A stretch of 64,000 bases of DNA. Source: Gammaproteobacteria bacterium (GTDB lineage Bacteria; Pseudomonadota; Gammaproteobacteria; Ga0077536). Of the stretch, positions 13,917-64,000 are shown piece after piece (the first letter of the stretch is position 1; each line of letters starts with the position of its first letter). The position numbers were made by a program, and so were the translations under genes. The stretch spans positions 1,002,304 through 1,066,303 of the forward strand of contig JBFXAQ010000001.1 of assembly GCA_050184115.1 (NCBI GenBank), in the 5' to 3' direction. Below the pieces are notes generated by a model. It ran no database searches. It saw nothing but the letters and a program-made list of their open reading frames with translations, and was not told the DNA's origin.

Positions 13917-14003
<87 letters not shown>

Positions 14004-43581: not shown

Positions 43582-45252
43582 TCAGTTGGCCAGGACGCGT
43601 AGGACCCGGAAGCCGGTGTAGGCGTCGGCGGTGTCGGCGGCGAGCGCCGCGCGCGCGGCCGAACGGAGCGCACCGGCGTCGTCGGCGTAGGAGCCGCCGC
43701 GCACCACGCGCAGGGCGCCCTCGCCGCGGCGTACGCTGCCGTCGGCAGGCGCGCCGGCATGGTCGTCGAACCAACTGTCGGCGACCCATTCACGCACGTT
43801 GCCGGCCATGTGATAGAGACGAAAAGCGTTGCCGTCCAGGCTGCGGTCGTTCGCCGCGAGCGGGCGCCCGTTCGCCCCACCGTGGCCGAAACGGGCGTCG
43901 TCGGGTGCGAGCTGGTCGCGTCCGGAGGGATAGGCCGCCGTCGATCCCGCGCGCGCGGCGAACTCCCACTCCGCTTCGCTCGGCAGGCGATACTCCGCGC
44001 CGGTGAGTTCAGACAACCACGCGGCGTAGTCGCGGGCCAGGTACCAGTTGACGTTGACCGCCGGCAGCGCCGGTTCCGGCCAGGGTTGTACCGGGCAGTT
44101 GCGGCCGGTGTCCGCGCAGTAGCGCGCGAGTTCGGCCGCGCTGATCTCGAACATGCTGAGCGCGAAGGGGTCGCTGATGTCGACGGCATGACGCGGGGTT
44201 TCGTGTGCGCCTTCGCCGCCCATGTCGAACTGCCCGGCCGCGACGACCACGAGCGCCGGGCCACGGAAGGCATCGCCGACGACGTCGATACAGAACGGGA
44301 GGGCGGCGCCGACCAGGTCCCGGCTGCAATTGCTGCGCGCGGGTACCGACGACGGCGTGGTTGCCGGCGACGCATCCACGGGCGTTGGCGCGGCCAGTGC
44401 GCGCCGCGGTTCCAGCGGCAACGGACGGGCGGCCACCGCACCGGGCTCCGCGGGCGCCGGCAGGGCGGCGCCTTCGGGCGCGGCGCTCGGCACGTCGGTG
44501 TCGCGCGCCGTATCGTCGGCGGCAGGCGTCTCCAGCGGGTCGCCGTCCGGCTGCCGGCTGCGCGCTTCGTGCCATTCGCGTCGCGCGCGCTCGAGGCGGG
44601 CATCGTCGATGGCGAGACGGTCGGCGAAGTCGAGCAGGCGCTCCTGGGCATCGAGGGCGTCGCGTGGATCACCGAGATCCATCAACGCCGTTTCGCCCGC
44701 GATCTGCGCGAGGACGGCATCACCGAGACGGCGCAGCGCGCCGTGTTCGACCAGTTCGGCCCGCGCCGCAGCATCGAGGTCCTGCCACTCGGCGACGAAG
44801 CCGTTCAAGCTGTCCAGGTTCCACACGTTGACGGCGAGGAAACGTGCCACAGGGTCGGGTGCCGGGGCCGTCTCGTGCTGGGCAGCGGCGGGTGAAGCGG
44901 CCGGTGCGGGCGCGGCCGCCGGCCGCCACAGCCACCAGCCGATGCCGATGGCGGCGCAGAGCGCGACGATCACCACGGCGAGCAGCGGGCCGCGTCCGCC
45001 CGCGGCGGCGTTGGTCCCTAGATCGGCGGCAACCGCGGGGATGATTTCCTGGGTGGTGTCGCCCTCGTCGTCCTCGTAGGGAAACACCGTTGGTGATTCG
45101 GGCGCCGGCGCGGAGAAAGGCACGAGTTCACGCTCGCCGGCCACGACGGCGCCGATCAGCTCGCGCCGTTGCAGGCGATAGGCCTCGCGGTCGATGTCGC
45201 CGACCGCGTAGCCACGCGACAGGCCGCGCAACGTGTCCTTGCTCTGCGCCAC
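43582..45252 (-). CDS. Single-pass membrane protein with C-terminal FGE-sulfatase/SUMF1-like domain (556 aa)
   Basis: TM LLAVVIVALCAAIGIGWWLW; GPALVVVAAGQFDMG, YRLPSEAEWEFAARAG, YHMAGNVREWVAD, VVRGGSY, GFRV. No FGE catalytic Cys motif. Confidence 0.88.
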   Translation of the reverse strand: MAQSKDTLRGLSRGYAVGDIDREAYRLQRRELIGAVVAGERELVPFSAPAPESPTVFPYEDDEGDTTQEIIPAVAADLGTNAAAGGRGPLLAVVIVALCAAIGIGWWLWRPAAAPAPAASPAAAQHETAPAPDPVARFLAVNVWNLDSLNGFVAEWQDLDAAARAELVEHGALRRLGDAVLAQIAGETALMDLGDPRDALDAQERLLDFADRLAIDDARLERARREWHEARSRQPDGDPLETPAADDTARDTDVPSAAPEGAALPAPAEPGAVAARPLPLEPRRALAAPTPVDASPATTPSSVPARSNCSRDLVGAALPFCIDVVGDAFRGPALVVVAAGQFDMGGEGAHETPRHAVDISDPFALSMFEISAAELARYCADTGRNCPVQPWPEPALPAVNVNWYLARDYAAWLSELTGAEYRLPSEAEWEFAARAGSTAAYPSGRDQLAPDDARFGHGGANGRPLAANDRSLDGNAFRLYHMAGNVREWVADSWFDDHAGAPADGSVRRGEGALRVVRGGSYADDAGALRSAARAALAADTADAYTGFRVLRVLAN

Positions 45253-48300: not shown

Positions 48301-50256
48301 GATGGCCGTGGCGTAGGCGCCGGGAATGCGGCGGTCGGTCAGCATGGCGTGCTTCGGATCGACCTGGCGCACCACGTTCATCGCGTCGAAGATGTCGTCT
48401 TCGCCGTCGACCGCGAGCAGGGCGCCATTCTCCAACGCCGTGTTGAACTTCTCGAACTGCTCGTTGAACAGCCGGTTCTCCGACTCCTGGATGTCGCGCT
48501 CGAGATCGGCGAGCACGCTCGAGTCCTTGTACACCGCCGACAATGCCTTGGCCTGTTCGACCGTCCGGCGTGCGCCGGTGAAGTCGAACTGTCCCTTGTC
48601 GACGGCGAACTGGGCGCGCGCGCGCCCTTCGAAGTAGCCGATGATCTCGTCCTTGGCCGCGGTGAAGATGCGGTCGCGCTTGTCCGCCGCGATGTCGTCG
48701 GTGGTGAGGTTGCCCAGCATGGTCTCGATCTGCGCCGCATCGCCCGATTTCGCCATCGCGATGCGGGCTTCGATGTCGCGGTTCTCGAGGTAGTTCTTGG
48801 CCGGGAAGAAACCCGCGATGATGACCAGGGCGGTGATCGCCGGCACCATGACGAAGGGGTTCTTCCACGGCGAGGTCGCGCCCTCGAATTCCTCGAGGAA
48901 CTGCCCGGTGCTCTGGCTGCGTCCTGCGCGCTCGAATGCCAGGCCGCGCTGCAGGCCCCGCCACTGCTTGCGCGTGAGGCCCTTGACCGGTTCTGGCGAG
49001 AGGCCGGCGTCACGCGCCTTGTTGGCCGGGATCTTGTTGAACGGGTGCTTGCCCGTGAGCAGTTCGTAGGCGACGCAGGCCAGCGCGTAGATGTCGTCGC
49101 GCGGATCGGGTTCCTCGCCCTCCAGCATCTCGAGACTGGCATAGGCCGGGGTCAGCGCGCCGAGTTTGCCTGGATCGAAGATGGTCGTCTCGCCCTCGGC
49201 CGCGCCCGGCGCCTTGACCGCGCGTGCGATGCCGAAATCGAGCACCTTCATCTGACCTTCCTTGGTGATGAAGCAGTTGCCGGGCTTGAAGTCCGAATGG
49301 ACGATGCTGCGGTCGTGGGCGTAGACGAGCGCGTTGCCAAGGCCCTGGACCATCGGGAACGCTTCGGCGAAGGGCAGCCCGCCCTTGGGCTTGACGACCT
49401 TCTTGATGAAGTCGTTCAGGGGCTCACCGTCGAGCACTTCCATGACGAGGAAAGCGAGGCCGTCCTCGGTCTGGTCGAAGTCATAGACGGTCGCGATGTT
49501 GGGGTGGGCGAGCTTCTGCTGGCGGCTCGCTTCGCGCTGCAGGGCGATGAAGGAATCGGGATGCTGCTTGAAATCCTCGTTGAGGACTTTCAGTGCGACT
49601 TCCGGTTTCTTGTCCTTGGCCCGGACCTTGATGAGATCCCTGCCGAGGTAGACCGCGCCCATGCCGCCCTGGCCGAGCACCTTGGTCAGTTCGAAACGGC
49701 CGCGCAGCACGCCGCCCGGTCCGAGGCGCGTAGTTGCCGCACCGGGCTCGGGTTTTGCCCAGTCGGTGCCGGTCTGGCCGGTATCGGTGCCACCGCTCGG
49801 CCACGACGAGCCGGTCTGGGTGCCGCTGTCCGAGCCGAGGTCGAAATCGATGCCGGTGGTGTGGCCGGACATCGGCGTCGCGGCAGCGGTGCCGTCGACG
49901 ATCTCGGTGGCGTCGTCGCCGGGCGGGGCGGTGCGTTCGACCCGCGTTGCGTCGTAGTTGTTGCCGGAGGTGATGTCGAGGATGCCGGTGTCGTCGCCGT
50001 CGCCCGCGTACTGCGTGCGTTCGTCGTCCTGGCCGCCGAGCGGCGCGGCTTCCACGTGACGCGCGACGCAGGCCCGCAAGCGCGCGTAGGTTTCGGTGTC
50101 GATGACGTCCTCGGTGACCGCCTGCTTGAGCTGGTCCATGATGGCGACCGCGGCCTGTGGCTTCTTGCGCAGCAGCTTGTCGATGTTCCCGGCGACCGAA
50201 TCGAACTCGATTTCGCGGCGCGACAGGCGCTCCAGTGTGGTCTTGAAATCAGCCAT
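45304..50256 (-). CDS. Membrane Ser/Thr (Hanks-type) protein kinase with long extracytoplasmic helical region and C-terminal FGE/SUMF1-like domain (1650 aa)
   Basis: LGQGGMGAVY, VALKVL, HSDFKPGN, KVLDFGIAR, DDIYALAC; one TM (FVMVPAITALVIIAGFF, about 48800-48860); C-terminal FRLPTIAEW, YVGNVQEWV, RGGAF, GFRV. Confidence 0.92.
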   Translation of the reverse strand: MADFKTTLERLSRREIEFDSVAGNIDKLLRKKPQAAVAIMDQLKQAVTEDVIDTETYARLRACVARHVEAAPLGGQDDERTQYAGDGDDTGILDITSGNNYDATRVERTAPPGDDATEIVDGTAAATPMSGHTTGIDFDLGSDSGTQTGSSWPSGGTDTGQTGTDWAKPEPGAATTRLGPGGVLRGRFELTKVLGQGGMGAVYLGRDLIKVRAKDKKPEVALKVLNEDFKQHPDSFIALQREASRQQKLAHPNIATVYDFDQTEDGLAFLVMEVLDGEPLNDFIKKVVKPKGGLPFAEAFPMVQGLGNALVYAHDRSIVHSDFKPGNCFITKEGQMKVLDFGIARAVKAPGAAEGETTIFDPGKLGALTPAYASLEMLEGEEPDPRDDIYALACVAYELLTGKHPFNKIPANKARDAGLSPEPVKGLTRKQWRGLQRGLAFERAGRSQSTGQFLEEFEGATSPWKNPFVMVPAITALVIIAGFFPAKNYLENRDIEARIAMAKSGDAAQIETMLGNLTTDDIAADKRDRIFTAAKDEIIGYFEGRARAQFAVDKGQFDFTGARRTVEQAKALSAVYKDSSVLADLERDIQESENRLFNEQFEKFNTALENGALLAVDGEDDIFDAMNVVRQVDPKHAMLTDRRIPGAYATAINTALENEDYDYADELGQIGLGLIPDSANLANLTDKIAGARDRAQTRARILTAIAAIQQAEDSDEGLAAYVDVAGAIADLARADPGNELLEKLRTTVQPLAVKDLAALESSKAWGKSALMGGDFKSLLRGLGLHELNARAAALGVQFDGTVSTERNAVTAAVASGEVTPQAEQALQRLAAIAPRNVRTQNARDQVAMALLQRAYGARDDGRYDAADQALAAAVAVAPRDNVTALVGAEQARVAAERGLDDAARTAARAQRQSRFDQRLAEVRAQIGTLGLEPAAYDQALAGLEELAALNPGSAAIDELRGTLAQAINDGARRMGEADRWDDAVDVTRRALIDLPGANELATSLASLEDSRRQFVVEQEKKLVADAKRDIEQLLQEPTADRDWRASVRQKMEDIIALGEPGDPWLAENGRRIAQTYIERATAMRGEQRFAEGANLLADAERFAPDAPGLADERAALAAATEAFEREQAEQARLARVDGLKETFQTQARANDVVAAQKTLDALRVELGDTQDAFVEKEAPRMLAAAYYKLATQRAAATDFAAALRFAKACAELQPERLDCKNAVRDYTVDGNKQDLEKIFARGGNFDLGEVMSKISEVQVLDPGVFSRSEGQWAQALGQRLEGLKESAGTGANSVIEQAKELFAGNQLIAAIELVKLEVPPSRYAAEVNAAMDKAMLGEARELLKKANESEAEHPDIVRLKATFNARVGDAKELFDTYKKQYTAGAYEDALATMEKALSVWADSGTFRKEHARVVAKLHPTDTGGTATDTGDRPIAPPLPATDPCEARLAGHGKRQKGTCFYFVSGNQRGPTMVVVPKGSGVDKAFAIGKFEVAVGDYNRYCVLSKSCEPRRGVEARQPITGISVEEAQAYVAWLSERTGEKFRLPTIAEWTYAAEAAGDQPKKDYNCRLEQNGQLLKGQGTMGVNTGKPNGWGLYNYVGNVQEWVTSGSGVVARGGAFEDTFSKCDITLEKNHDGQADEATGFRVVMDLS

Positions 50257-50364: not shown

Positions 50365-51093
50365 TCATGCCGCGGCGACCTCCACGACGCAGACCGTCAC
50401 ATTGTCGATGGCGCCCCGTTCGAGGGTCAGGTCGACCAGCGCACGCGCCGCTTCGGCCGGGGTGCCAGAGGCGAGCAGGCGCGCGATCTCGGGGTCCTTG
50501 ACGTGCTTGTCGAGACCGTCCGAACACAGCAGGAAACGGTCGCCGCCGGCCAGCTCGTACATGTCCATTTCCATTGCCAGCGAGTCGGTGACGCCGACCG
50601 CGCGCGTCACCATGTTGCCCGACGGGTGTCCCTCCGCCTCGCTGCGATCGATCAACCCCTTCTCGATGTAGGCCTCGATCTGCGTGTGGTCGGTGGTCAG
50701 CTGGTTGAACTCGCCGTCCCGCAGGCGATAGAGGCGGCTGTCGCCGGCCCACATCGTCACGGCATGGCGCCCGCGCATGAGCAGGATCACGACGGTGCTG
50801 CCACTGGTCTGGTTGTGCGCGTTGGCGACCTCGAACAGCCGCGCATTGACGTGCATGACGGCGTCTTCGACCTGGTCGACCAGCGGGGCCAGATCGTCCC
50901 CCAGGGTCAGCTTGCCGAGCGAATTGACGATGAGCTGGCTGGCGAGGTCGCCCGCCGAGTGGCCGCCCATGCCGTCGGCGACCACCCACAGGCCGTCGCC
51001 GCAGCGCTCCAGGCCGGAGTCCTCGTTCAGCTTGCGGACCTTGCCGACGTCGGAAATCAATGCCGACGTCCAGCTGAAGGGCTTGTCGCTCAT
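50365..51093 (-). CDS. PP2C-family Ser/Thr phosphatase (Stp1/PppA-like)
   Basis: DVGKVRKLNED, VADGMGGH, WAGDSRLY, LCSDGL, DNVT. ATG at 51093. Confidence 0.93.
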   Translation of the reverse strand: MSDKPFSWTSALISDVGKVRKLNEDSGLERCGDGLWVVADGMGGHSAGDLASQLIVNSLGKLTLGDDLAPLVDQVEDAVMHVNARLFEVANAHNQTSGSTVVILLMRGRHAVTMWAGDSRLYRLRDGEFNQLTTDHTQIEAYIEKGLIDRSEAEGHPSGNMVTRAVGVTDSLAMEMDMYELAGGDRFLLCSDGLDKHVKDPEIARLLASGTPAEAARALVDLTLERGAIDNVTVCVVEVAAA

Positions 51094-51187: not shown

Positions 51188-52087
51188 TCACCCGTCCGTC
51201 TTGAAATGCACGATTTCCTGCGGGTTCTCCGCGAACGAACGGCCGAGGCTGATCTTGCCGCTGCCGGTGAGGGGCATCTCCTCACGGCGCAGGAAGGCCT
51301 CGCTGCCATCGCAGAAGACATACGTGCCGTTGGTGCTCTGATCGATGATGAAGAACTTGCCCCGGCGGTGTTCGACGCGCACGTGCTGGCGCGAGGCGAG
51401 GGCTTCGGCCACGGCGATGTCGGCGGTCTTGCTGCGCCCCAGCACGACCTGGCTGCGTTCGGCGTCGACGGTAACGCGGTCATCGTGGTAGCGCAGGTCG
51501 AGCTGCGCGCGGTTGATCGGTTCGGGGATGACCCCGGTCGACATGCGCGTGACGTCTTCCTGCTGCCACAGCACTTCGAAGATGTCCATCGTCTCTTTCT
51601 TGCCCTTGACGGGCGCCCGGTCGATGAAGCGCGAGCTGGCCTTGAGGATCGGCGGCAGCTCGTCGATGGTCGACTGGGTGGTGATGATCTGGCCGGCCTT
51701 GGCCATCGAGGCCATGCGCGCGGCGACGTTGACCGCATCGCCGAAGACGTCACCCGCCTCCAGGATGGCCGGACCGTGATGGAGGCCGATACGGATGGCG
51801 AGCGAGATCTGACCGGCCGAGGGGCTTTCGACCACCTCGTCCTCCAGCATCTCGTGCATCTCGCAGGCGGCCGAGACCGCGCTCTCGGCGGTCGGGAAGG
51901 TGCACATGAGCTCGTCGCCGATGGTCTTGATGACCGAGCCGCCGTGGCGCTTGGTGACGTCCGTCAGCACCTGCAGGCAACTCGCCACCTGGGCCCGCGC
52001 CGGCCCATCGCCCAGGACCTCGTACAGGCGCGTACTGCCGCTGATGTCCGCGAACACGATGGTCAGGTGGGTCGTTTTGGGGGCCAT
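51188..52087 (-). CDS. Class III adenylate cyclase fused to a C-terminal FHA domain
   Basis: VFADISGST, IKTIGDELM, RIGLHHG, GDVFGDAVNVAARM: metal Asp pair, ATP-specifying Lys/Asp and Asn/Arg all present. FHA motifs LGRS, SRQH, STNGTYV. Confidence 0.92.
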   Translation of the reverse strand: MAPKTTHLTIVFADISGSTRLYEVLGDGPARAQVASCLQVLTDVTKRHGGSVIKTIGDELMCTFPTAESAVSAACEMHEMLEDEVVESPSAGQISLAIRIGLHHGPAILEAGDVFGDAVNVAARMASMAKAGQIITTQSTIDELPPILKASSRFIDRAPVKGKKETMDIFEVLWQQEDVTRMSTGVIPEPINRAQLDLRYHDDRVTVDAERSQVVLGRSKTADIAVAEALASRQHVRVEHRRGKFFIIDQSTNGTYVFCDGSEAFLRREEMPLTGSGKISLGRSFAENPQEIVHFKTDG

Positions 52088-52355: not shown

Positions 52356-53366
52356 ATGCGGTTGATACCTGTGCTCGGGGCGGTGGCGCTCGGCGCTCTG
52401 CTGATTCTCATCGGTGCGTTCGGTGCCCGTTGGTTGGGCCCGTCCGACGCCGAGGGCACGGTCGAACTCGTCGACAAGCCGGCAGCGCCGGCGCCGACGA
52501 CGGCTTTCGAGGCCCATATCGACGTCGACGCATTGCGCGAGCTGCTGGCCGTGCTGCCGGCGCAACAGCGCGCCCAGATCCTCGATGACGCCGATAACTT
52601 CGCCAAGTTCGTCGAGCAGGAGACGGTCAACCAGGCGGTCCTGGCGGCGGCCTACGCCAACGGCGCGGATCGCAACGAGGCTATCCAGGTACTGATGCAT
52701 CGCGCTGGCCAGCGGGTGCTGGCGGAGGCCTATCTCAACCAGGTGGTGCGCGGCAATCTCGACCCGGCGTTCCCGTCGGACGAGCAGGTGCGCGAAGCCT
52801 ACGACAAGAACCCGGACGCCTTCCGCGTGCCGCGACGCATGCACATCTGGCAGATCTTCCTGCCCTATGGCGATGGCGAAGACGCGGCCAAGCGCAAGCA
52901 GGCCAGCGAACTCGCCAAGCGGCTCGTCGCCGACCTGCGCGCCGGCAAGACCACCTTCGAAGCGGCGGCGAAGCAATATTCCGGGCACCAGCAGAGCCGC
53001 CTCAACGAGGGCTACATGGGGCTGATCCGGGTCGACGAAATGTTGCCGGCAGTGGCGGGTACGGCGGAGGCCTTGCCGGTCGACGGCATCAGCGATCCCA
53101 TCGAAACCGCCGACGGACTCCATATCATCAAGCGCGGACAGGCCATCGAATCCGAGATGCTGGCCTTCGAGGCCATCGAACCGCAGGTCCGCGAGCGTCT
53201 GCGCCGTGAGGCCGCGCTGAAAATCCGCCAGGCGGCGTTGGAGAAGATTGCCGCGGAGTTTCCCGTCGACCGCGGCGACGGCGACGCGGCGGCCTGGCGA
53301 GCGGCCCTCGAGGACCAGCCGGCCGCAACGGCCGCGAACCCCGCTGCTCCCGCAAGCGAGCCGTAG
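52356..53366 (+). CDS. Parvulin/PpiC-type peptidyl-prolyl isomerase (PrsA/SurA-like foldase), N-terminally anchored
   Basis: Hydrophobic N-terminus; EQVREAYDKNPDAF, HIWQIFL, FEAAAKQYS, GYMG, ISDPIETADGLHIIK; AAGGA ribosome-binding site. Confidence 0.85.
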   Translation: MRLIPVLGAVALGALLILIGAFGARWLGPSDAEGTVELVDKPAAPAPTTAFEAHIDVDALRELLAVLPAQQRAQILDDADNFAKFVEQETVNQAVLAAAYANGADRNEAIQVLMHRAGQRVLAEAYLNQVVRGNLDPAFPSDEQVREAYDKNPDAFRVPRRMHIWQIFLPYGDGEDAAKRKQASELAKRLVADLRAGKTTFEAAAKQYSGHQQSRLNEGYMGLIRVDEMLPAVAGTAEALPVDGISDPIETADGLHIIKRGQAIESEMLAFEAIEPQVRERLRREAALKIRQAALEKIAAEFPVDRGDGDAAAWRAALEDQPAATAANPAAPASEP

Positions 53367-53572: not shown

Positions 53573-55549
53573 ATGCGAATCGGAGCCACCTACCGCTGGG
53601 CGCGTGATCGCCATCGTCCCGGATGCCTGAGCGCCGTCCTGCTGCTCGCCGCCACGACCACGAGCCATGCCGCCTTCATCGAGGCACCGGACGCGGTGCG
53701 GCCGGGTGCCGTCCGCCCCGGTACGGGCAACGCCGTGCAGATCGCCGATCGCTCCGCCCTGCCGATTCCGTCGCGCCCCGGTGCCCTGCGCCCCGGCGAC
53801 GGCGCCGATTTCGAAGTCAACGACACCTCGCTCGCACAGCTGGCGGACCTGCCGGACGCGGCGCGCCCCGGTGCCATCCGGCCAGGCGAGGACCGCAAGC
53901 TGATCCCGCCGGAACCGCCCGCGGAACCCTTGTTCGAAGTGCCGCCCGTGGCCGATCGCCCGTTGGAGATCGACGAGGGCGAGCTCATCGAGGTATCCAG
54001 TTTCGTGCTCACCGGCGCGCAGGATCGGCCGGAATTCGATATCGAGCTCAGCGCCGTGCAGGGCATCGTCGACGCCGCGTTGGCCGATCGGCCCGACGGC
54101 TTCACCGTCGGCCGCCTGCAGGAAGTCGCTGACGAGGTCACCAAGTATTACCGCGAGCACGGTCTGATCCTGGCCCAGGCTTTCGTGCCCGTGCAGACAG
54201 TGGAAGACGGCGCGGTCAAGTTGCAGGTCATGGAAGGCCTGCTCGGGCGGGTCGTCACCGAGGGCAACGAACTCTACAGCGCGGAAGTGCTCGAAGCGCC
54301 GTTCCGCTCACTCGTCGGACAACCGATCACCAAGGACGCAACCGAGTCGGCCCTGCTGCGGGTTTCGGACCTGCCGGGCCAGTCGTCATTCGGCGTGTTC
54401 CAGCCGGGTATCGAGGTCGGCACCGCCGACATGGTCGTCAAGGTGCAGGACGAGGACCGCCTGGAGCTGGCCTTGCGCGCGGACAACCACGGCATCAGCG
54501 AGACCGGTCAGAACCGCTACCTCGGCAAGGTGACCTGGAACAATCCGCTCGGCCAGGGCGATCGTCTCGATGTCACCGCGCAGCACACCGCGGTCCCGGA
54601 CAACACGTTCTTCTACGCCGTCGACTACGAAGTGCCGGTGACGGGTCTCTACGACAGCGTCTTCAACATCGGCATCAGCCGCAACCAGTTCGACGTCGGC
54701 GGGCAGTTCCGCGACTCCGACATCTACAGTGATATCCGCAACTATTACGTCGCGCTCAGCAACGACCTCATCCGCGGCCGCCTGATGAATCTCAGCGTCG
54801 GTGCGCGCTTGTCGAAGAAGCGCAGCGGCACCAAGTCCTTCGGCCGCGGCGTCAGCATCGACAGCCTCACGGTTGCCGCGTTCGAACTCAACTTCGACAA
54901 CGTCGACGCCCGCTTCGGCGGCCTCAACGCGGCCTATTTCGAGATCGCGCACGGCTTCAACGATTTCCTCGGCGCCATGGGCAAGACGCCGGCGTCGATC
55001 CAACCGTCGCGCCAGAGCGGCACTGGCGAGTTCGCCGTGGGTGAATTCAACAAGGTGTTCCTCAGTGCGTCGCGGTTCCAGTCGCTGACGCCGCTGTGGG
55101 AGAAACTCGACAACCACAACCTGCTGCTCACCTTCGAAGCGATGTGGTCACCCGACCTCCTCGTGCCGCTCGAGCAGTACAGCGTCGGCGGTCCGAACAA
55201 CGTGCGCGGTTATCGTCCGACCGAGCAATTGTTCGACCGCGCCCTGTTCGCCTCCCTCGAATGGATCATCAATGCCCCGTTCATCGCCGATGCGCCGGCT
55301 TTCGGCAATCGCACCTGGGGTGAATTGATGCAGTTTTCAATCTTTTACGATTGGTCCACGGGCCAGTTGAACAGTGCGCTGCCGACGGAGAAGCAATCCG
55401 AACGCTTCAACGCCATCGGTTTTGCCCTCTCGTTCAACAACCCGAAGGTCTTTTCGAGCAAGCTCACGATCGCCACGCCGGTGGGCAGCCCACGCCCGGA
55501 GAACGACAAACGACCGCAATACTGGGTCGATTTGAACTTCTTCTTCTGA
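53573..55549 (+). CDS. ShlB/FhaC/HecB family two-partner secretion transporter (TpsB)
   Basis: Signal peptide; POTRA (LQEVADEVTKYYREHGLILAQAFVPVQ); ADNHG, NNPLGQGD, GGPNNVRGY (VRGY motif); C-terminal Phe. Confidence 0.93.
   Translation: MRIGATYRWARDRHRPGCLSAVLLLAATTTSHAAFIEAPDAVRPGAVRPGTGNAVQIADRSALPIPSRPGALRPGDGADFEVNDTSLAQLADLPDAARPGAIRPGEDRKLIPPEPPAEPLFEVPPVADRPLEIDEGELIEVSSFVLTGAQDRPEFDIELSAVQGIVDAALADRPDGFTVGRLQEVADEVTKYYREHGLILAQAFVPVQTVEDGAVKLQVMEGLLGRVVTEGNELYSAEVLEAPFRSLVGQPITKDATESALLRVSDLPGQSSFGVFQPGIEVGTADMVVKVQDEDRLELALRADNHGISETGQNRYLGKVTWNNPLGQGDRLDVTAQHTAVPDNTFFYAVDYEVPVTGLYDSVFNIGISRNQFDVGGQFRDSDIYSDIRNYYVALSNDLIRGRLMNLSVGARLSKKRSGTKSFGRGVSIDSLTVAAFELNFDNVDARFGGLNAAYFEIAHGFNDFLGAMGKTPASIQPSRQSGTGEFAVGEFNKVFLSASRFQSLTPLWEKLDNHNLLLTFEAMWSPDLLVPLEQYSVGGPNNVRGYRPTEQLFDRALFASLEWIINAPFIADAPAFGNRTWGELMQFSIFYDWSTGQLNSALPTEKQSERFNAIGFALSFNNPKVFSSKLTIATPVGSPRPENDKRPQYWVDLNFFF
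53687..53887 (+). repeat. Three imperfect RPGA[V/L/I]RPG peptide repeats in the TpsB N-terminus
   Basis: PDAVRPGAVRPG (53687-53722), PSRPGALRPG (53768-53797), PDAARPGAIRPG (53852-53887). Confidence 0.9.
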
Positions 55550-55571
55550 GCGGGCACTCGACCCGTCGGCG

Positions 55572-55599: not shown

Positions 55600-55670
55600 G
55601 CATGGTCACCGGGTGGTGCGTAGCACCGCTTTCGCAGGCGCGTGACATTCGCGAGGTAGTGGAAATCCGG

Positions 55671-55714
55671 TGTGAAGTGATTCACGGACCCGCCAACTAC
55701 CTGATAACTAAACT
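55671..55714 (+). promoter_or_regulatory. CRP-family binding site plus -10 element (class II CRP-type promoter) upstream of tpsA
   Basis: TGTGA-AGTGAT-TCACG (55671-55686) matches TGTGA-N6-TCACA at 9 of 10 positions. TAAACT at 55709-55714 puts the site centre at about -42. GGAGG ribosome-binding site at 55761-55765. Confidence 0.7.
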
Positions 55715-55776
55715 GGCCCGACTTCAGAAACGGGCGCGCGGCGCATCGAGTGCGCCAGCCGGAGGGTGTTGACGTC

Positions 55777-58700
55777 ATGAGCAGCCGTCATTTCGAGCCG
55801 AACGCGGCAGGGACGAATGGGCCCGCCAGTTCACTGAACCCGCTGTCACGCGCAGTCCGTCTCGCCCTTGTGCCGGGCGTGGTCCTGGGCCTCGGACCGC
55901 AAGCGGTCGTCGCCGGGCCGACCGGTGGCCAGGTGCGCGCCGGCCAGGCGGCCATCACCCAGAGCGGGCCGGTCACCACCATCTCCCAGCAGTCCGCGAG
56001 GGCTGCACTCGACTGGCAGAGCTTCAACGTCGCCAAGCACGAGACCGTCCAGTTCCAGCAACCCAGCGCACGCGCCGCCACCCTCAACCGCATCTTCGAC
56101 CAGAACCCGAGCGAGATCTTCGGCCAGGTCAAGGCCAACGGCCGCGTCGTGTTGATGAATCCCAATGGGGTGTTCTTCAAGCCCGGCGCGCGGGTCAACG
56201 TCGGCAGCCTGGTGGCCGGCGCCATGCAGGTCGGCATCGACGACTTCATGCGCGGCAGCTACAGCCTGGAGGCGTTGAAGAACGCCGGCGGGCGGGTCGT
56301 CAACCAGGGCACCATCGAAGCCACCGACGGCGACGTCGCCCTGGTCGGCACCAGCGTTGCCAACGAGGGCGTCATCGTCGCCACCGCCGGGCGCGTGCAG
56401 CTCGCCGCCGGTGAGAAGGTCACGGTCGACTTCGACGGGGACGGCTTGCTGCGTTTCACCGTCGACGAGGCGGTGCTCGAAAATGCCAAGGCGATTGACG
56501 ACCAGGTTGCCAACACCGGGCAGATCGTCGCCGAGGGTGGCGACGTGCTCATCACCGCCAGCGCCGCCGACGGCGTGTTCAAGAACGCCATCAACAACAG
56601 CGGTGTCATCCGCGCCGGGCGGGTGGAGAACCGCGGTGGCAAGGTCATGCTGGTCGGCATGGGGCCGGGGGCGTCGGTGCTCAACACCGGGCAGATCGAT
56701 GCTTCCGCGGCCGACGCCATGAGCAGTGGCGGCGCGGTGCGAGTGAGCGCGGCGAACATCTCCAATGTCGGCGACATGCGTGCCGACGCGGTTGGTGGCG
56801 AAGGCGGCTCCGTGCACCTCCTGTCGACGAATACCACGCTCAACAGCGGCACGATTTCGGCCACCAGCGCGAGCGGTCACGGTGGCGAGGCACGGGTCCT
56901 CGGCGACAAGGTCGGCGTGGTCGGCGAGGCGGTGGTCGACGTCAGTGGCGCCACCGGCGGCGGCGAAGCGCTGATCGGCGGTGACTACCAGGGCAGCAAT
57001 CCGGACATCGCCAACGCACGGGTGACCGTCGTCGGCGCACAGGCCCGCATCGACGCCAGCGCCACAGGCGACGGCGACGGCGGCAAGGTCATCGTGTGGG
57101 CGGATGGCACCACGCGTTATGCAGGCACGATCGAGGCGCGCGGCGGCGCCGACGGCGGCGATGGTGGGTTCGCCGAGGTATCGGGCAAGAATCACCTGGA
57201 TTTCGAGGGTGACGCCGATCTCTCCGCGCCGCAAGGCGCGACTGGCCGCCTGCTGCTCGATCCGAAGGATATCCTCGTCGCGGATGTCGACCCGGGTCCG
57301 GCCGACAACACGATCGTCGACGCCACGGACCTCGCGGACTTCGGCGATCAATTCACCGATGTGCCGGACGAGAGCAGCTTCATTTCGACAGCGAACCTCG
57401 TCACCCTGCTCGACAGCGCCGATGTCATTCTGAAGGCGAACAACGACATCACCATCGACGACGCCGTCGACGCATCGGGCAATGGCAACGACCATGGTCT
57501 CGACCTCGCGGCCGGCCGCAGCATCGCCGTCAATGCCGATGTCACGCTGCGCGGCGGATTCAGCGCCACCGCCAATTCGGACGACGCCGCGGTCGTCACC
57601 GCCCAGCGAGACGCCGGCGCCGGCGCCTTCACCATGGCCGATGGCGTGACCATCGATACGACCGCCGGAGCCGCGCCCGGTAATATCGACATCACGGTCG
57701 CCGCCGGTGCCGGTGGCGGGCAGACATCCGGCGACATCACCCTCGCCAACCTCGATGCCGGTACCGCCACGGTCACCATTGCGCAGGATGGCAAGACCGA
57801 CGGCAGCGACATCGTTCGCACGGCCACGTCACAGATCACCGCAGATACGCTCGCTCTCAGCGTCAGCGATGCGCTCAACGCTTCGGGCGCCATCGGCGCC
57901 ACGGGTGTCGGCAACGCCATCGCGACTGACGTCGCCACGCTCACCGCATCGACCGTGCAGGGCGGAATCTACGTCACCGAGGCGAATGACCTGGCGGTCG
58001 GCGCCGCCGGCGTGACGACGGGCGGTACCGCGGCGGGCGAAATCGTGTTGACCGCGGGCGGTACGCTCACCCTCGGCGGCGACATCGATTCCACGGACGC
58101 GCCGATCACGCTGACCGCGGGCAATCTCGTGAACGCCGCGAATGCCATCGATGCTGGTACGAACACGGTCAAGCTCGTCGCCAACAGTGGCAACGCGATG
58201 AGCATCAACGGCGCCAGCGCGTTCGACGTCTCGACGGCCGAGGTCGCGGCCATCACGGCCGGCACGTTGCACTTCCAGACGCTGGGCGCGACGGACGACA
58301 TCTCGATCGAGAACACGAATTTCGGCGTCAGAAACGTGAAGCTCGAGAGCGCGCGGGACATTCTCGACGAAACGCCTGGCGACGACACCACGGACGCGAC
58401 CCAGGTTACGACCACGGGCACCCTGACGCTCGATGCCGGCCGCAATATCGGCAGCGGTACGGATGGCCTGGCCGACCTCGACATCGCCGGGGCTACCGCC
58501 GTCACCATCCTCGCCGGCGGCAGTGTCGATCTGAACACCTCCACGGCGTTCAACAGCTTCTCGGGAACGTTCAGCCCGGTGGCAGATGCGGTCGACGTGA
58601 ATATCACCGGTAGTACGATTATCGATATCGACGAGACCGGCAATCAGCTGCAGATCAACAGCATCAACGATGCCGCGCTCACCGTCCAAATCGCATCGTT

Positions 58701-61700
58701 GGACAGCGGTATCGTGCTGAACAATGCCGCCACGGACGCCGTCGTCGCCGCGGGAGTCACGCTGATCGCAGGTAACGGCGCGATCGTCGATACCGCCGAC
58801 ACGACCAACGGCGTCGCCATCTTGACCGATGGGCCGGTGCTGCTCAGCGGGACGTCAATCGGTGTCAACGACACGGATCAGCTCGATCTCTCAGCACCCA
58901 CCGGCCCGGTGCTCTTGCAAACCTCGACCTCCGGCGACCAGTTCATCAGCAGCGGCAACGGCCTGACGACAACCGGAGCGGGTGTCTCGGGTGGCGCTAC
59001 CGGTAATGTCAGCCTGACGACCACGGCAGGTGACATCACGCTTACTAATGGCGTCAACGTTGCGGTCAAGGGTGCAACGGTCACGCTGGACTCCGCGGGG
59101 GCGATCGCCGATTCAGACAGCGCGTTCGCTGCGATCGAGACCGACGGACAGATACTGCTCAAGGCAGGCGGCAACGTCGGTGCGAACGGTGGGAACCCCC
59201 TGAACATCGCGTCGACCAACCCCGGCACAACGACGGCCCTGCTGGACGTCGACAACGCCGGCAGCGGCGACGTCTTCGTCGCGAGCAGTGGGGCTTTGAA
59301 CCTGGTCGACGGCGATGCGGATACCGTGGCGCTGGCGACCGGCGGTGGCGCCATCAGCGCGAGCAGTCCCCTGACAATCAGCAACACGGTCAATCTGACT
59401 GCGGGGACGACCTTCACGGCCGGCAACAGCGGCACTGCGGGTGACGATCTCACCATCAACGCTGCAGTTACGCTCGATAACGATGTCGATGGCGAACTTC
59501 TCACGTTCGTCGCCGGCGAGAACATCGTCTTCGGCGCGACGGGTTCGATCGATACCACGCTCGGCGCGGCCAGGCATGCGGTCACGTTGACGGCCGACAA
59601 CGAGGGTGCGAAGACCGGAACCATCGGCGAATCGGTTGCCGACGCGCATACCCTGGTCACGACCGGTGCATTGACCATGACTGCGGGGAGCATCGGCGCA
59701 GCAGGTGCGAACCCCGCCATCGACATCGACGCCACCAGTCTCGCCGCCTCGGCCACCGGCGGCGGGATTTTCGTCATCGAAACTGACGCCGGCGGTGACG
59801 GGCTGGACATCGCCGGTACCGGCCTCGCTACCGCGGGCGGTGATATCGAACTGACCGTGCAGGGTGGTGGACTTACCGACTCGGCGGGCATCGAGACTTT
59901 CAACGCGGGTAGCGACGGCGGCGACGTCACGCTGAACGTCATCGGTGTAATCGATCTCAGCGAGACGATCGATGCCCGTGGCGCGCCGAGCATCGACGTC
60001 GATGCGTCCGCCGGTGGCAATGTCTCGGTGACTGGTTCGTTGACCGTCACCTTGGGGCAGATTTTTACCGATGGCGGTACCGCGATCGATATCACGGGTG
60101 ATACCAACGCATCGGCGGGTGGTAATGCCGGCAACGTGACCATCGTTGCGGCGAGCGACCTCGTGACCGGCACGATCAGCGCCGTTGGCGGTAACGCGGC
60201 CGCCGCGGCAGGCGACCTGGCGGACGGGGCGGTGGGTGGGGCCGGCGGCAACGTCAGCCTGACCGCGACCGATGGCAGCATCGTGGTCGCCGGCATCAAT
60301 GCCTCGGCGGGTGCCAGTGCGAGCGCCACCGGCGCCGCGGCCGGTGCCAACGCTGGTACGGTCACCGTGCTGGTGGACAACGCGGATGCCGACCGCGACA
60401 TCACCCTGAACGGCGCCGTCAATGCCGTTGGCGGAACGGCTGTGCGCGCCGCCACCGGCGGTACGGGTGGCAACGTCGTCTTGCGTGTCGAGGATGACGA
60501 GGCCAATGGCAGCGGTTCGGTCGCCATTGTCTCGGTCAACGCTGCCGGTGGTGCGGCCACTACCGCGGCCGGCACCGGCGGCGCGGCCGGCGACGTCGAG
60601 CTGACCTCGCTCGGCGGCGCGAACGCGATCACATTGAACGGTCTTGTTTCCGCGCTCGGCGGCTCGAATACCGCGGCCCGGGGCGCCGACGGCACCGTCA
60701 CGCTGACGGCCGATGGCATCGTCGATGTCGGGGCGGACGGCGCCACGAAAGTCGCGGCTGGCACACTCGTTCTCAGCGCCGCCCAGTTCGGGACGGCAAC
60801 GGGCAATTCCGCTGCGCACATCGACGTCACCAACCTCGATCTCACGACCCAGACAGCGGATTCGTTCATTACCGAAGTCGACACCGTCACGCTCGACGGC
60901 CTCAACCTGCAGAGCAATTTCCAAAGCGACGGCGGCAATCTCACGCTGACCGTGCAGACGGGCAATCTGACCAGCGATACGAACGTGGAAACCCAGGGTG
61001 CAGTCGACGGCGGCGATCTCGCGATCACCGTTCAGGCCGGCAATATCGATCTGGCCGCGCGTACGCTCTTGACCGCAGGTACAGCGGCCGTAGGCGATGC
61101 CAACGGGGGTAACGCCGGTTCGATCAACCTCGTCGCCAGTGGTTCCGTGGCCGTCGATGAACTCGACGCCAGCGGCGGTGATGGCCTCGATGGGGCCAAC
61201 GACGGCACGGCGCGGGCCGGCGGCAGCGGCAACAGCGTCACGGTCAATGCCGGCACCACGATCGCGGTGACGACCGTGAATACTTTCGGCGGCGGCGCCG
61301 ACGTAACCCCGGGAGACGGCGTCGGGGCAGCCGGCGGCGCCGGTGGTAGCGCCACTCTCAGTGCGACAAACGGGGCGATCACCGTAACCTCGGTGACCAC
61401 CTCGGCCGGCGCCAGTGCGGCCGACGGCGTCGACATAGACGGTAGCGACGCTGGCGATATCGTCCTCTCGATCACGGGCGCGAACGCCGGCGGGCGCAAT
61501 ATCAGCGTCGGTGGTGCGCTCACCGCGGTCGGCGGCGCGGCCGCCGGTGGCGGCGGCGAAACCGGTGGCGACGGCGGCAGCGTGTCCGTCAGCGTCGCGG
61601 GCGCCGGTGGTGGCGCCGGCTCGGTCAGTGTCGCCAACGTCACCACCGACGGTGGTGCGGGCGCGACTGCCGGCACTGCCGCGCCCATCGCGCTTACGGC

Positions 61701-64000
61701 GCTGGGGGCCACCGGTAACGTCAACCTGGCCAGCAACCTGTCGGCACTCGGCGCCAGCAGCCCGCTCGGCACGATCACCCTGACCGCCGGCACCGGCGGC
61801 GGTGCCATCAACGTCGGCGGGTCGGTGGCCAGTATCGAGACCAGCGATGCGAACGTCGATTTCGTCGGGCCGGTCTTCTTGAACAACACCGGTACGCTGA
61901 CCGTGAATACGGGAACGGGCGCCGGCGATATCACGTTCTCCGATACGCTGACCGGAGGATCCGCCAACCGCAACCTGACGCTCACTGCTGGCACGGGCAA
62001 TATCCATTTCACAGGCCAGCTGACCGGCGGCGCGAACAAGATTCGCGCGCTGACCATCTCGTCGGCACGCAATGTAACGGCCGATGCTGACATCAATGTG
62101 CGCAGCTTCACGCAGACCACGGGTACCGGGACCACGTTGCTGACCGGGGCACTCGTCGCCCAGGCCCGAGACGGCGCGGCACCGACCGGAGTGTCGATCA
62201 CCAACACCGCGATCGACGTGCAGAACGGCATCGACACTGCCGGCGCAGCCAGCGACACCCTCAACAACCGTACGGGCGGCAATATCACCCTCAATGCAAC
62301 GGCGACCACACTGACCATCGCCGGCGCGGTCAACTCGGCCGGTGCGGCCGCGGTGACGAGTGGCGCCGGAGGTGCAGGGGGCACGGTCAACCTGACGGCG
62401 AACACCTCCTTCGCCAGCAGCGGGACCATCACGACTACCGGCGGTGGTGGGCGTACGGCGACAGGAGGCATCGGCGGCAACGTCACGATCAACGCCAACG
62501 GCCTCACCGTGGGCGCCGGGGTGACCAGCAGTGGCGGCAACAACCTGAGCGGCAATGGCGACGGCGGCGCCGCAGGCACCATCACGCTCAATGGCGGCAC
62601 CGGCGCAGTCAATCTCAACGCGGCCCTGGTCGCGGCGGGCGGCAATTCCTCGACCACCGGCGGTACCGACGATGGTAACGGCGGCACTGTTTCGATTACC
62701 GCTGGTACCTCTATCGTCGTCGACACCACGGCGGCTGCGATCACGACCACGGGAGGGAGCGGCAACGACGCGGCGGACGGCGGGGCCGTGAATTTCGTCA
62801 GCCCGGTGGTACTCGCCGGCGACGGTACCTTCACGATCAACACTTCGGGCGACGCGGCCAGCGCGGTGGGTTCAGTCGCGTTCCAGTCCACGCTCGACGG
62901 CGATGGTGCCGGCGCGGCCGAAGCATTGACGATTACGGCCGGCGGCGGCGATGTTCAGTTCCTGAGGAACGTCGGCAATGGAAATGTGCTCGGCGCAGTA
63001 CTGATCAACAGCGCACGGAATGTGACCTTCGGCGATCCGGTCAACCCGGGCGCGGAGACATTCAAGGTCGGGTCACTCACACAGCTGGCCGGAACCGGCA
63101 CCACGCGGTTCGACGGTCGCACTGGGTTCACGTCGACTGATAACAATGCCCCGACGCTGGGTTTGTTCAACGTGGTGATCGGCAATGGACTGAGCATTAC
63201 GGCAGATAGCATAGAGATCAACGACAGCATCCGTGTCGATACCGGCGATATCGTGCTTGTTTCCGCGAACGACGTGGTTGTTTCGACTGCAGGGATGACG
63301 CCCGGTGGTGCTTCCAGCGTGCGTAATCGCGACGTCTACGCGGTCGACGGTAACATCACCACTGACGTGGCCAATGGCTCTGGCGACACGACTCTGCAAG
63401 ACTCCGGCACGGACCCGGTTAATCCAGATAATGGGTTGAATACACGTTTGGTCGCGGGAGGTTCGGGAGGAGCGATTTCCGCGGACAATGCCGATCTGGG
63501 GACGAATTTGAATGACGTGACTTGGCCGCATCTGGTCGGCGCTCTCGTCGAACTCCTCTACCACCAGACTCTCTATTTGGGTAGTGACACCGCTGGACTG
63601 GGTGGCGACGTATTCCCCGTAACGTTCCACCTTGACGACCAAGGGCTCCGCGACAGCATCAATGCGAATGGCCTGTCCGTGTTCCGCACCGATACCGGTG
63701 ACATCGTCCTCGACATGGCGAGCGATTTCGACCTGGATTTCGGCGGGACCGCAACCCTGCGGCTCATCGCGGACAACGGAAACATCCTCGACAACAGCGA
63801 TGACGTCGCGGTAACGGGCAGCGGCGACGGTATCGCGTTTCACGCCGGTTTCGACGGCACGTTGCTCGATCTGTTCGCGCCGAATGGAACGATAGGCCTT
63901 GCGACGGGAACGCTCGATCATCTGGCCGCTACCCTGAACAACACGACTCCGACCTTGACGGTCGACGCTACCGACATCGCGGTGTCCACTGCGAGTGCGG
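55777..64000 (+). CDS. Giant filamentous haemagglutinin-like TpsA exoprotein (>2740 aa, 3'-truncated at window edge); not in the ORF track
   Basis: ATG at 55777 after GGAGG. Hand translation gives a signal peptide, then GPTGGQV, LDWQSFNV, LNRI, NGRVVLMNPNGV (TPS domain), GGFAEVSGK...LLLDP (about 57170-57265) and Gly/Ala/Thr/Asn-rich beta-helix repeats. The same frame still reads as coding at 63601-63840, and no terminated ORF from this start is listed in the track. Confidence 0.93.
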   Translation, partial: MSSRHFEPNAAGTNGPASSLNPLSRAVRLALVPGVVLGLGPQAVVAGPTGGQVRAGQAAITQSGPVTTISQQSARAALDWQSFNVAKHETVQFQQPSARAATLNRIFDQNPSEIFGQVKANGRVVLMNPNGVFFKPGARVNVGSLVAGAMQVGIDDFMRGSYSLEALKNAGGRVVNQGTIEATDGDVALVGTSVANEGVIVATAGRVQLAAGEKVTVDFDGDGLLRFTVDEAVLENAKAIDDQVANTGQIVAEGGDVLITASAADGVFKNAINNSGVIRAGRVENRGGKVMLVGMGPGASVLNTGQIDASAADAMSSGGAVRVSAANISNVGDMRADAVGGEGGSVHLLSTNTTLNSGTISATSASGHGGEARVLGDKVGVVGEAVVDVSGATGGGEALIGGDYQGSNPDIANARVTVVGAQARIDASATGDGDGGKVIVWADGTTRYAGTIEARGGADGGDGGFAEVSGKNHLDFEGDADLSAPQGATGRLLLDPKDILVADVDPGPADNTIVDATDLADFGDQFTDVPDESSFISTANLVTLLDSADVILKANNDITIDDAVDASGNGNDHGLDLAAGRSIAVNADVTLRGGFSATANSDDAAVVTAQRDAGAGAFTMADGVTIDTTAGAAPGNIDITVAAGAGGGQTSGDITLANLDAGTATVTIAQDGKTDGSDIVRTATSQITADTLALSVSDALNASGAIGATGVGNAIATDVATLTASTVQGGIYVTEANDLAVGAAGVTTGGTAAGEIVLTAGGTLTLGGDIDSTDAPITLTAGNLVNAANAIDAGTNTVKLVANSGNAMSINGASAFDVSTAEVAAITAGTLHFQTLGATDDISIENTNFGVRNVKLESARDILDETPGDDTTDATQVTTTGTLTLDAGRNIGSGTDGLADLDIAGATAVTILAGGSVDLNTSTAFNSFSGTFSPVADAVDVNITGSTIIDIDETGNQLQINSINDAALTVQIASLDSGIVLNNAATDAVVAAGVTLIAGNGAIVDTADTTNGVAILTDGPVLLSGTSIGVNDTDQLDLSAPTGPVLLQTSTSGDQFISSGNGLTTTGAGVSGGATGNVSLTTTAGDITLTNGVNVAVKGATVTLDSAGAIADSDSAFAAIETDGQILLKAGGNVGANGGNPLNIASTNPGTTTALLDVDNAGSGDVFVASSGALNLVDGDADTVALATGGGAISASSPLTISNTVNLTAGTTFTAGNSGTAGDDLTINAAVTLDNDVDGELLTFVAGENIVFGATGSIDTTLGAARHAVTLTADNEGAKTGTIGESVADAHTLVTTGALTMTAGSIGAAGANPAIDIDATSLAASATGGGIFVIETDAGGDGLDIAGTGLATAGGDIELTVQGGGLTDSAGIETFNAGSDGGDVTLNVIGVIDLSETIDARGAPSIDVDASAGGNVSVTGSLTVTLGQIFTDGGTAIDITGDTNASAGGNAGNVTIVAASDLVTGTISAVGGNAAAAAGDLADGAVGGAGGNVSLTATDGSIVVAGINASAGASASATGAAAGANAGTVTVLVDNADADRDITLNGAVNAVGGTAVRAATGGTGGNVVLRVEDDEANGSGSVAIVSVNAAGGAATTAAGTGGAAGDVELTSLGGANAITLNGLVSALGGSNTAARGADGTVTLTADGIVDVGADGATKVAAGTLVLSAAQFGTATGNSAAHIDVTNLDLTTQTADSFITEVDTVTLDGLNLQSNFQSDGGNLTLTVQTGNLTSDTNVETQGAVDGGDLAITVQAGNIDLAARTLLTAGTAAVGDANGGNAGSINLVASGSVAVDELDASGGDGLDGANDGTARAGGSGNSVTVNAGTTIAVTTVNTFGGGADVTPGDGVGAAGGAGGSATLSATNGAITVTSVTTSAGASAADGVDIDGSDAGDIVLSITGANAGGRNISVGGALTAVGGAAAGGGGETGGDGGSVSVSVAGAGGGAGSVSVANVTTDGGAGATAGTAAPIALTALGATGNVNLASNLSALGASSPLGTITLTAGTGGGAINVGGSVASIETSDANVDFVGPVFLNNTGTLTVNTGTGAGDITFSDTLTGGSANRNLTLTAGTGNIHFTGQLTGGANKIRALTISSARNVTADADINVRSFTQTTGTGTTLLTGALVAQARDGAAPTGVSITNTAIDVQNGIDTAGAASDTLNNRTGGNITLNATATTLTIAGAVNSAGAAAVTSGAGGAGGTVNLTANTSFASSGTITTTGGGGRTATGGIGGNVTINANGLTVGAGVTSSGGNNLSGNGDGGAAGTITLNGGTGAVNLNAALVAAGGNSSTTGGTDDGNGGTVSITAGTSIVVDTTAAAITTTGGSGNDAADGGAVNFVSPVVLAGDGTFTINTSGDAASAVGSVAFQSTLDGDGAGAAEALTITAGGGDVQFLRNVGNGNVLGAVLINSARNVTFGDPVNPGAETFKVGSLTQLAGTGTTRFDGRTGFTSTDNNAPTLGLFNVVIGNGLSITADSIEINDSIRVDTGDIVLVSANDVVVSTAGMTPGGASSVRNRDVYAVDGNITTDVANGSGDTTLQDSGTDPVNPDNGLNTRLVAGGSGGAISADNADLGTNLNDVTWPHLVGALVELLYHQTLYLGSDTAGLGGDVFPVTFHLDDQGLRDSINANGLSVFRTDTGDIVLDMASDFDLDFGGTATLRLIADNGNILDNSDDVAVTGSGDGIAFHAGFDGTLLDLFAPNGTIGLATGTLDHLAATLNNTTPTLTVDATDIAVSTASA

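Follow-up and report, generated by a model that had tools for sequence, protein, structure and literature searches.

A conserved, predicted CRP-type operator at a putative internal tpsA promoter in a two-partner secretion cluster with an FHA-fused adenylate cyclase of its own

Class II promoters of E. coli, of which galP1 is an example, have the CRP site centred at -41.5, and CRP sites that lie on one helix face can give synergistic class I + class II activation. The G2 and G4 pairs of TGTGA are contacts of the CRP recognition helix, and the dyad TGTGA-N6-TCACA is common to CRP, Vfr, Clp and GlxR; Clp-like factors of the Xanthomonas type are released from DNA by c-di-GMP. A dedicated cAMP circuit whose parts are linked in the genome is known from Sinorhizobium meliloti, where it runs through cyaD1/cyaD2/cyaK, Clr and smc02178. 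The CyaC-Clr system of S. meliloti has also been described (PMC10463352). The closest documented case to the locus presented here is the exlBA two-partner secretion operon of P. aeruginosa, which Vfr-cAMP activates directly (PMC7049718; also Berry et al. 2018, its reference 12). The exlBA site precedes exlB and drives the whole operon, and it is specific to one species, being absent from other Pseudomonas (PMC7049718). At the level of protein phosphorylation, the type VI secretion system of P. aeruginosa is served by the threonine-phosphorylation pathway PpkA-PppA-Fha1 (PMC5995506).

The DNA analysed here, referred to throughout as the window, is a stretch of 64,000 nucleotides that ends within tpsA (55777..64000, plus strand). 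The TpsA product carries a TPS secretion domain (PF05860, residues 48-296, by Pfam) and, where the gene is complete, on contig JBFWTC010000001.1 of GCA_050248045.1, is 3034 aa long. Immediately upstream, tpsB (53573..55549, plus strand) encodes a 658-aa outer-membrane transporter in which Pfam recognizes POTRA_2 (PF08479) and ShlB (PF03865). A TpsB with POTRA domain and ShlB/FhaC barrel, adjoining a TpsA with an N-terminal TPS domain, is what identifies a two-partner secretion system, and both were found. The PPIase-tpsB-tpsA arm opens with a gene for a membrane-anchored PPIC-type peptidyl-prolyl isomerase (336 aa; 52356..53366, plus strand). Transcribed away from this arm are four minus-strand genes, which encode a protein that joins a class III adenylate cyclase domain (residues 4-166) to an FHA domain (residues 214-257; 51188..52087, by Pfam and alignment), a PP2C Ser/Thr phosphatase that is likewise a member of the cluster (242 aa; 50365..51093), a receptor Hanks-type Ser/Thr kinase (1650 aa; 45304..50256) and a second membrane-anchored FGE-sulfatase-domain protein (556 aa; 43582..45252), also a conserved cluster member. 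In the kinase, the catalytic domain spans residues 189-413 and a single transmembrane segment is predicted at 468-486; its long outer part terminates in an FGE-sulfatase-like domain.

By tblastn, relatives with TpsB identities as low as 43% preserve the arrangement kinase - PP2C - cyclase-FHA / divergent PPIase - TpsB - TpsA, and more distant ones have the kinase, PP2C and tpsBA without the cyclase and PPIase. As a cluster of seven genes (window 43582-64000) it is conserved in order and orientation in the related loci L001-L017, L054 and L063-L073, from uncultured Gammaproteobacteria, and loci picked by their cyclase contain the same cluster wherever they are intact. The cyclase-FHA protein is the best-conserved member, at 82-96% identity in L001, L002, L003, L005 and L006 as compared to 67-87% for TpsB. 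A literature search returned no description of an FHA-cyclase/kinase/PP2C/TPS cluster or of a similarly placed FHA-fused bacterial adenylate cyclase.

Several further features of these loci may be recorded. IS elements (DDE_Tnp_1, IS1595 family) sit between the cyclase and the PPIase/tpsB arm in L065 (1556-6391) and L066 (1-6405), where the cluster is broken. In the long-read assemblies L063/L064 (3555-5506), L069 and L072, the tpsB, tpsA or kinase gene is split into at least two called genes, likely through frameshift errors or as pseudogenes. Ahead of the POTRA domain, TpsB residues ~36-105 (window 53680-53890) hold three (D)A(V/A)RPGA(V/L/I)RPG-like copies, and several residues of this region are invariant in the seven closest homologues. 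The remaining window is ordinary chromosome (sdhCDAB, ffh, rplI, dsbB etc.) and includes a single tRNA gene (13920-14003, minus strand); Rfam matched nothing else in the window at gathering score.

Within the 227-nt gap between tpsB and tpsA lies a predicted CRP-family operator, TGTGAAGTGATTCACG (55671..55686, assigned to neither strand), which we call from its match to the consensus together with the orthologous boxes described below; with its immediate flanks it reads GGTGTGAAGTGATTCACGG (55669-55687). Two inverted 5-bp half-sites, TGTGA and TCACG, are separated by exactly 6 bp (AGTGAT) and match TGTGA-N6-TCACA at 9/10 positions, and the same 6-bp spacing recurs in orthologues that score 8-10/10. 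A sequence-only reading of the window had reported this near-consensus box as intergenic, and the sequence and coordinates confirm it; all coordinates and features in that reading were correct, its sole weak point being the statistics of one match. In the 64-kb window there is one match with at most one mismatch, compared with 0.85 expected by chance at the window's composition, and 62 of 100 shuffles of the window contained at least one such match. One match per 64 kb is the chance level, so the window by itself proves nothing, and the repeat might be a functionless chance match or, as it could fold into a 5-bp stem with a 6-nt loop, a small RNA hairpin in a tpsB-tpsA read-through transcript. 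The statistical weight of the box comes from its place and its conservation rather than from its mere presence.

Orthologous loci were gathered with TpsB, 7 from a one-genome-per-species scan and 54 more from a metagenome scan with a TpsB alignment; each gap was delimited by the tpsB stop and the tpsA start, and its best match to TGTGA-N6-TCACA was scored. Boxes of at least 9/10 were present in 14 of 37 orthologous tpsB-tpsA gaps, compared with 0.14 expected from 2000 dinucleotide-preserving shuffles (maximum 2), where the loci counted are not phylogenetically independent and represent roughly 6-8 independent lineages. Over the 535 kb of sequence scanned, 26 boxes of at least 9/10 fell just downstream of tpsB and only 9 elsewhere (~530 kb); these 9 belong to promoter regions in distant, low-GC loci that have tpsB next to fha, tssJ, tssK and tssL. 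Five low-GC loci (L038, L040, L043, L044 and L046, at ~2800-5900 in each; TpsB 33-35%) have tpsBA beside tagH/fha, tssJ, tssK and tssL, and carry 9-10/10 boxes between the fha/tpsB starts and upstream of tssJ.

By clade, the box is identical to that of the window in clade A (L001, TpsB 87% identical; 9/10), scores 9/10 in clade B (L010 and L011, 60%) and 9-10/10 in clade C (L012-L015, 44-46%), and is a 10/10 match in L033 and L035 (38%). Clade D (L016, L017, L018 and L021, 43-45%) has four tandem CRP-type boxes in each locus, spaced 23, 31 and 31 bp (L016 5740-5840, L017 5698-5797, L018 2234-2334, L021 2434-2534), with the three promoter-proximal boxes three helical turns apart on the same helix face. 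Clades in which TpsB is only 43-60% identical keep the box, and the rest of the gap is unalignable. Conservation upstream of orthologous tpsA genes, the check that the sequence-only reading had proposed, thus came out positive across clades and down to 43% TpsB identity. A second, independent sample of 8 loci, taken through cyclase-FHA homologues, added six further lineages with 8-10/10 boxes at the same place, the gaps carrying TGTGAATTGGTTCACG, TGTGAAGTACTTCACG and TGTGACTCGGTTCACA (9-10/10) and three 8/10 versions.

The box is degenerate or missing in some of the nearer relatives. L005 (TpsB 71%) retains 7/10, the left half being kept and the right half lost, and L002, L003, L006, L008 and L054 (70-76%) have no box and have lost the -10 too. 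Within this group, the subclade formed by L002 (7731-7854), L006 (11818-11941) and L054 keeps GATGCGAAGTGCCGACAG at the corresponding place, which looks like a decayed box, with 4/5 of the left half present, the right half lost and the -10 absent.

Where the box is kept, the constraint on it is narrowly focused. In an alignment of clades A, B and C the only invariant columns, the terminal ATG aside, are box positions. Window and L001 are 57% identical at fourfold-type tpsB sites and ~92% identical over 55657-55719, and the upstream half of the gap is unalignable between them. In a symmetrised matrix of 25 non-redundant sites, G2, G4, A5, T12, C13 and C15 are invariant (50/50), T1 is the least constrained position (41/50) and the six spacer bases vary freely. 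The single mismatch of the window falls on this outer, least constrained base, and in the high-GC clades the right half-site ends in G. Low-GC loci have A/T-rich flanks, with AAA/TTT added; measured against the E. coli CRP consensus, which we used for the motif comparison, TGTGATCTAGTTCACA is one base off the core.

This pattern fits a protein-bound dyad and not an RNA stem, since a stem would show compensatory changes and the half-sites keep their sequence instead, with the loop free to vary. The conservation is moreover far above chance, and a 5-bp stem is marginal. An Rfam search of the tpsB-tpsA gap gave no match at E<=1, and a known RNA family there was accordingly rejected. Judged by these comparisons, an RNA hairpin or a chance match is highly improbable and already close to refuted. 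By computation, the box is under strong purifying selection, in the high-GC clades at a fixed distance from a conserved -10, and within the cluster it is specific to the tpsA promoter. A search for boxes of at least 8/10 in the cyclase-PPIase and PPIase-tpsB gaps of the window found none, and the same two gaps in 14 relatives held only four 8/10 matches (L006, L054, L012 and L016); CRP boxes at other cluster promoters were rejected, none reaching 8/10 in the window's clade. The PPIase-tpsB gap contains a possible tpsB promoter, TTGCTG-N18-TATACT (window 53464-53493), too weak for the consensus scan.

The position of the box relative to the putative tpsA promoter is equally regular. The hexamer TAAACT (55709..55714, plus strand), 22 nt past the box, is the predicted -10, and a TAnnnT hexamer stands 21-22 nt past the box in 12/12 high-GC orthologous loci (TAAACT, TAACAT, TAAAAT, TAGGAT in three cases, TAAGAT, TACGAT, TACCAT and TAGGCT). 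At the -35 position, as read from the sequence, CGGACC (55685..55690, plus strand) matches TTGACA at only 3/6 bases and is overlapped by the box. The -10 predicts a transcription start at 55720..55722 (plus strand), which puts the box centre (55678.5) at -41.5 to -43.5; the sequence-only reading had placed it about 42 nt upstream of the start implied by TAAACT, and the coordinates agree, giving 41.5-43.5 nt. With the start so predicted, the box is at the class II CRP position, near -41.5 and over a weak -35, a geometry that we claim for the high-GC clades only. The likely -10 in clade C is TGnTAACAA-like and 21 nt past the box, and in clade D a possible -10 lies 24-26 nt from the proximal box. 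A consensus sigma-70 promoter scan called no tpsA promoter, a miss that we attribute to the poor -35; it is expected of an activator-dependent promoter and was not counted against one. Farther downstream, a Shine-Dalgarno sequence, GGAGGG (55761..55766, plus strand), precedes the tpsA ATG (55777) by 10 nt. Folding also predicts a pair of small, GC-rich hairpins where the putative 5' leader begins (55716..55756, plus strand; 55716-55735 and 55740-55756), which are of low significance, being no better than shuffles, and have comparable counterparts in L001, L005 and L010.

Our preferred reading, to which we assign a probability of roughly 0.7, is that the box is a functional CRP-family operator ~41.5 bp upstream of the start of the promoter in the gap, driving tpsA by class II activation. 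A CRP-family dimer on the box, presumably the host CRP or a Vfr orthologue, would overlap the poor -35 (CGGACC), contact RNA polymerase and activate transcription. High-level TpsA would then be made only with the ligand-loaded factor, the ligand most likely being cAMP. No such site accompanies the genes for TpsB, the PPIase and the signalling proteins, so that only the cargo gene would be wired in this way.

The same kind of protein might conversely lower tpsA expression as a repressor or roadblock, for instance by blocking polymerases that read through from tpsB. Read-through transcripts must cross the box in L063 and L072, where it starts 9-17 nt past the tpsB stop, the four tandem boxes of clade D could form a repressive array, and the tpsA start on which the geometry depends is itself predicted. 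Repressor sites, however, usually cover the -10 or the start, whereas a conserved TAnnnT exactly 21-22 nt downstream of the box combined with a poor -35 is the signature of class II activation, and the 31-bp tandem spacing, three helical turns, fits synergistic class I + class II activation. We consider repression quite unlikely, and expect the effect of the bound factor to be activation.

The sequence-only reading had also argued for a separate tpsA promoter from a hairpin past tpsB, and this argument does not hold up. The gap does contain a strong GC-rich stem, GGGGTGCACGG/CCGTGCACCC, at about 55569-55601 (plus strand), at best a doubtful terminator, with no T run. The terminator scan made no terminator-like call at this hairpin, the region past tpsB folds no better than shuffles (z = -1.2), the sequence of the hairpin is not conserved, and the short distance from tpsB stop to box in L063 and L072 leaves no room for one; we reject it as a terminator. 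The conserved -10 is better evidence for an independent tpsA transcript. From the position of the box in L063 and L072 we also gather that read-through from tpsB probably occurs, and the tpsA promoter is best seen as an internal one that adds to any such read-through. In relatives that lack the box, read-through is probably the sole route to tpsA expression. Two other candidates in the gap were discarded, a small upstream ORF or start-stop at the box (ATGTGA / GTGTGA) and a 29-codon ORF in L002 and L006, neither of which is conserved among the loci.

The second part of the earlier proposal concerned an adenylate cyclase gene 3.6 kb from the box. Such a gene is indeed present, its start being 3584 bp from the box, and its 299-aa product has Guanylate_cyc and FHA domains; among solved structures, those nearest to it by alignment are the minimal mycobacterial cyclase Ma1120 and PDB entry 3mr7. 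The metal-binding aspartates correspond to D14 and D58, the substrate-specifying residues to K54 (motif KTIGD) and D113 (motif DVFG) and the transition-state residues to N120 and R124, and R99 is also present. All seven residues (D14, K54, D58, R99, D113, N120 and R124) are the same in every one of 120 homologues, and so are the FHA motifs GR, SR..H and NGT, which bind phosphothreonine. The cyclase-FHA homologues form more than 120 clusters at 64-100% identity, all ~300 aa long and all from uncultured Gammaproteobacteria. In class III cyclases a K/D pair goes with ATP and an E/C pair with GTP, and on the strength of its K54/D113 pair the 299-aa protein is an adenylate cyclase predicted to make cAMP.

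The box tends to accompany this gene. Of the 22 distinct loci that have both the cyclase and an intact gap, 13 show a box of at least 9/10, three show one of 8/10 at the corresponding place, one shows a box of 7/10 and five show none; of the 12 that lack the cyclase and extend far enough upstream, 1 shows a box. The co-occurrence favours a functional link between cyclase and box, with the qualification that the loci are not independent. In the box-less loci the cyclase is intact throughout, at 82-84% identity in L002, L003, L006 and L054 and 59% in L008. In L074 (5833-8648), the PPIase, cyclase-FHA and PP2C are kept and the kinase and tpsBA are absent; this locus, from the same study as the window, occupies the corresponding chromosomal site, with the same flanks (methyltransferase, HAD hydrolase, SQS_PSY, sdh). 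Since the five box-less loci and L074 retain the cyclase, it would appear to have outputs besides the tpsA promoter. The direct connection from local cAMP source to secreted protein that the sequence-only reading had drawn is an inferred one: the tracking of box and cyclase and the K54/D113 pair speak for it, and the five box-less relatives with a cyclase, together with L074 without tpsBA, weaken it. Nor does genomic neighbourhood prove a private circuit, given that cAMP is diffusible and that CRP usually regulates globally.

The regulator itself would come from elsewhere in the genome. The observation that the window contains no CRP gene was borne out by a tblastn search, in which CRP of E. 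coli, Vfr of P. aeruginosa and Clp of X. campestris found no homologue at E<=1 in the window or in 74 related loci, and by Pfam scans of 20 window ORFs, including all 11 in the CRP size range of 169-267 aa, which found no cNMP-binding or HTH_Crp domain. A CRP gene nearby is thereby ruled out within this scope. A CRP-family binder might then answer to a signal other than cAMP, as a Clp-like protein released by c-di-GMP or a cGMP-responsive one would, and the neighbouring cyclase would be irrelevant to the promoter. The consensus shared by CRP, Vfr, Clp and GlxR is compatible with this, as are the five relatives with a cyclase and without a box and the nature of the host, a member of an uncultured high-GC gammaproteobacterial group whose 120 best SdhA matches, reaching down to 83% identity, include no named relative. 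Members of the CRP family are furthermore known to differ in cAMP dependence (review, PMC4005916). Against such a binder, the linked cyclase has the adenine-type K/D pair and not the guanylate-type E/C pair, the box tracks the cyclase (13/22 plus four degenerate boxes, vs 1/12), and the low-GC sites are almost identical to the E. coli cAMP-CRP consensus, A/T flanks included. We regard a non-cAMP signal as unlikely, and on our preferred reading of a class II operator the ligand would be cAMP, to which the FHA-adenylate cyclase 3.6 kb away presumably contributes.

How the cyclase might itself be controlled is suggested by its neighbours, and it is probably gated through its FHA domain by the adjacent receptor Ser/Thr kinase and PP2C. 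More tentatively, and with less confidence than doubt, we speculate that the seven-gene cluster is a self-contained, previously undescribed circuit in which a phospho-threonine mark set by kinase and PP2C would act through the FHA-cyclase, cAMP and the host CRP on tpsA. In such a relay the receptor Hanks kinase, with its large periplasmic part including the FGE-sulfatase-like domain, would be opposed by the PP2C phosphatase, the FHA domain of the minimal adenylate cyclase would read the phospho-threonine, and the giant cargo would be made only while the kinase is active. The relay would have been passed on vertically within a widespread, uncultured lineage of Gammaproteobacteria, and was possibly derived from the threonine-phosphorylation pathway of type VI secretion.

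Overall, the box first noted in the window is confirmed as an observation, and its interpretation as a tpsA-activating CRP site is supported as far as sequence comparison allows. The element is of a standard kind, a predicted CRP-type class II operator; what is new is how deeply it is conserved at the internal promoter of a cargo gene, and that it is associated with a module of FHA-adenylate cyclase, kinase and phosphatase. A single near-consensus CRP match means little, and here it has become a phylogenetic footprint across whole orders of uncultured Gammaproteobacteria. If the parts cooperate, the locus would offer a testable case of cross-talk between eukaryote-like Ser/Thr phosphorylation and bacterial cAMP-CRP transcription control, as well as a first way into the regulation of a protein family so far seen only in metagenomes; the relay, if true, would lead from Ser/Thr phosphorylation to cAMP and be dedicated to a secretion system. 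The sites are near the E. coli consensus, so that the circuit can be rebuilt in E. coli without culture of the host.

Set beside the known systems, the locus most resembles exlBA in having a CRP-family consensus site directly upstream of the core promoter at a two-partner secretion locus; for exlBA, PMC7049718 reports that the site is required for expression and responds to cAMP. The two differ in that the present site occupies the tpsB-tpsA gap, would act on the cargo gene alone, is kept over clades of 43-87% TpsB identity and belongs to a cluster with its own adenylate cyclase, whereas exlBA is without a linked cyclase. The likeness to E. coli class II promoters is in the 16-bp TGTGA-N6-TCACA dyad over a weak -35, 21-22 bp ahead of the -10, and that to tandem-site class III promoters in the extra sites of clade D, 31 bp apart on the same helix face; here, by contrast, the start and the contacts with RNA polymerase are predicted, and the right outer base is G in the high-GC clades. 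As in S. meliloti, class III adenylate cyclases are linked in the genome to a target promoter with a CRP-type box, but clr lies inside the S. meliloti module and no regulator gene is nearby here, where the cyclase is instead FHA-fused and flanked by a Hanks kinase and PP2C. Finally, like PpkA-PppA-Fha1, the locus encodes a receptor Ser/Thr kinase, a PP2C and an FHA protein together beside a secretion system, and its distant tpsBA relatives adjoin fha, tssJ, tssK and tssL of type VI secretion. In the type VI pathway the FHA protein acts post-translationally, on the machine; here the fusion of FHA domain and adenylate cyclase points to an output at the level of transcription, through cAMP-CRP.
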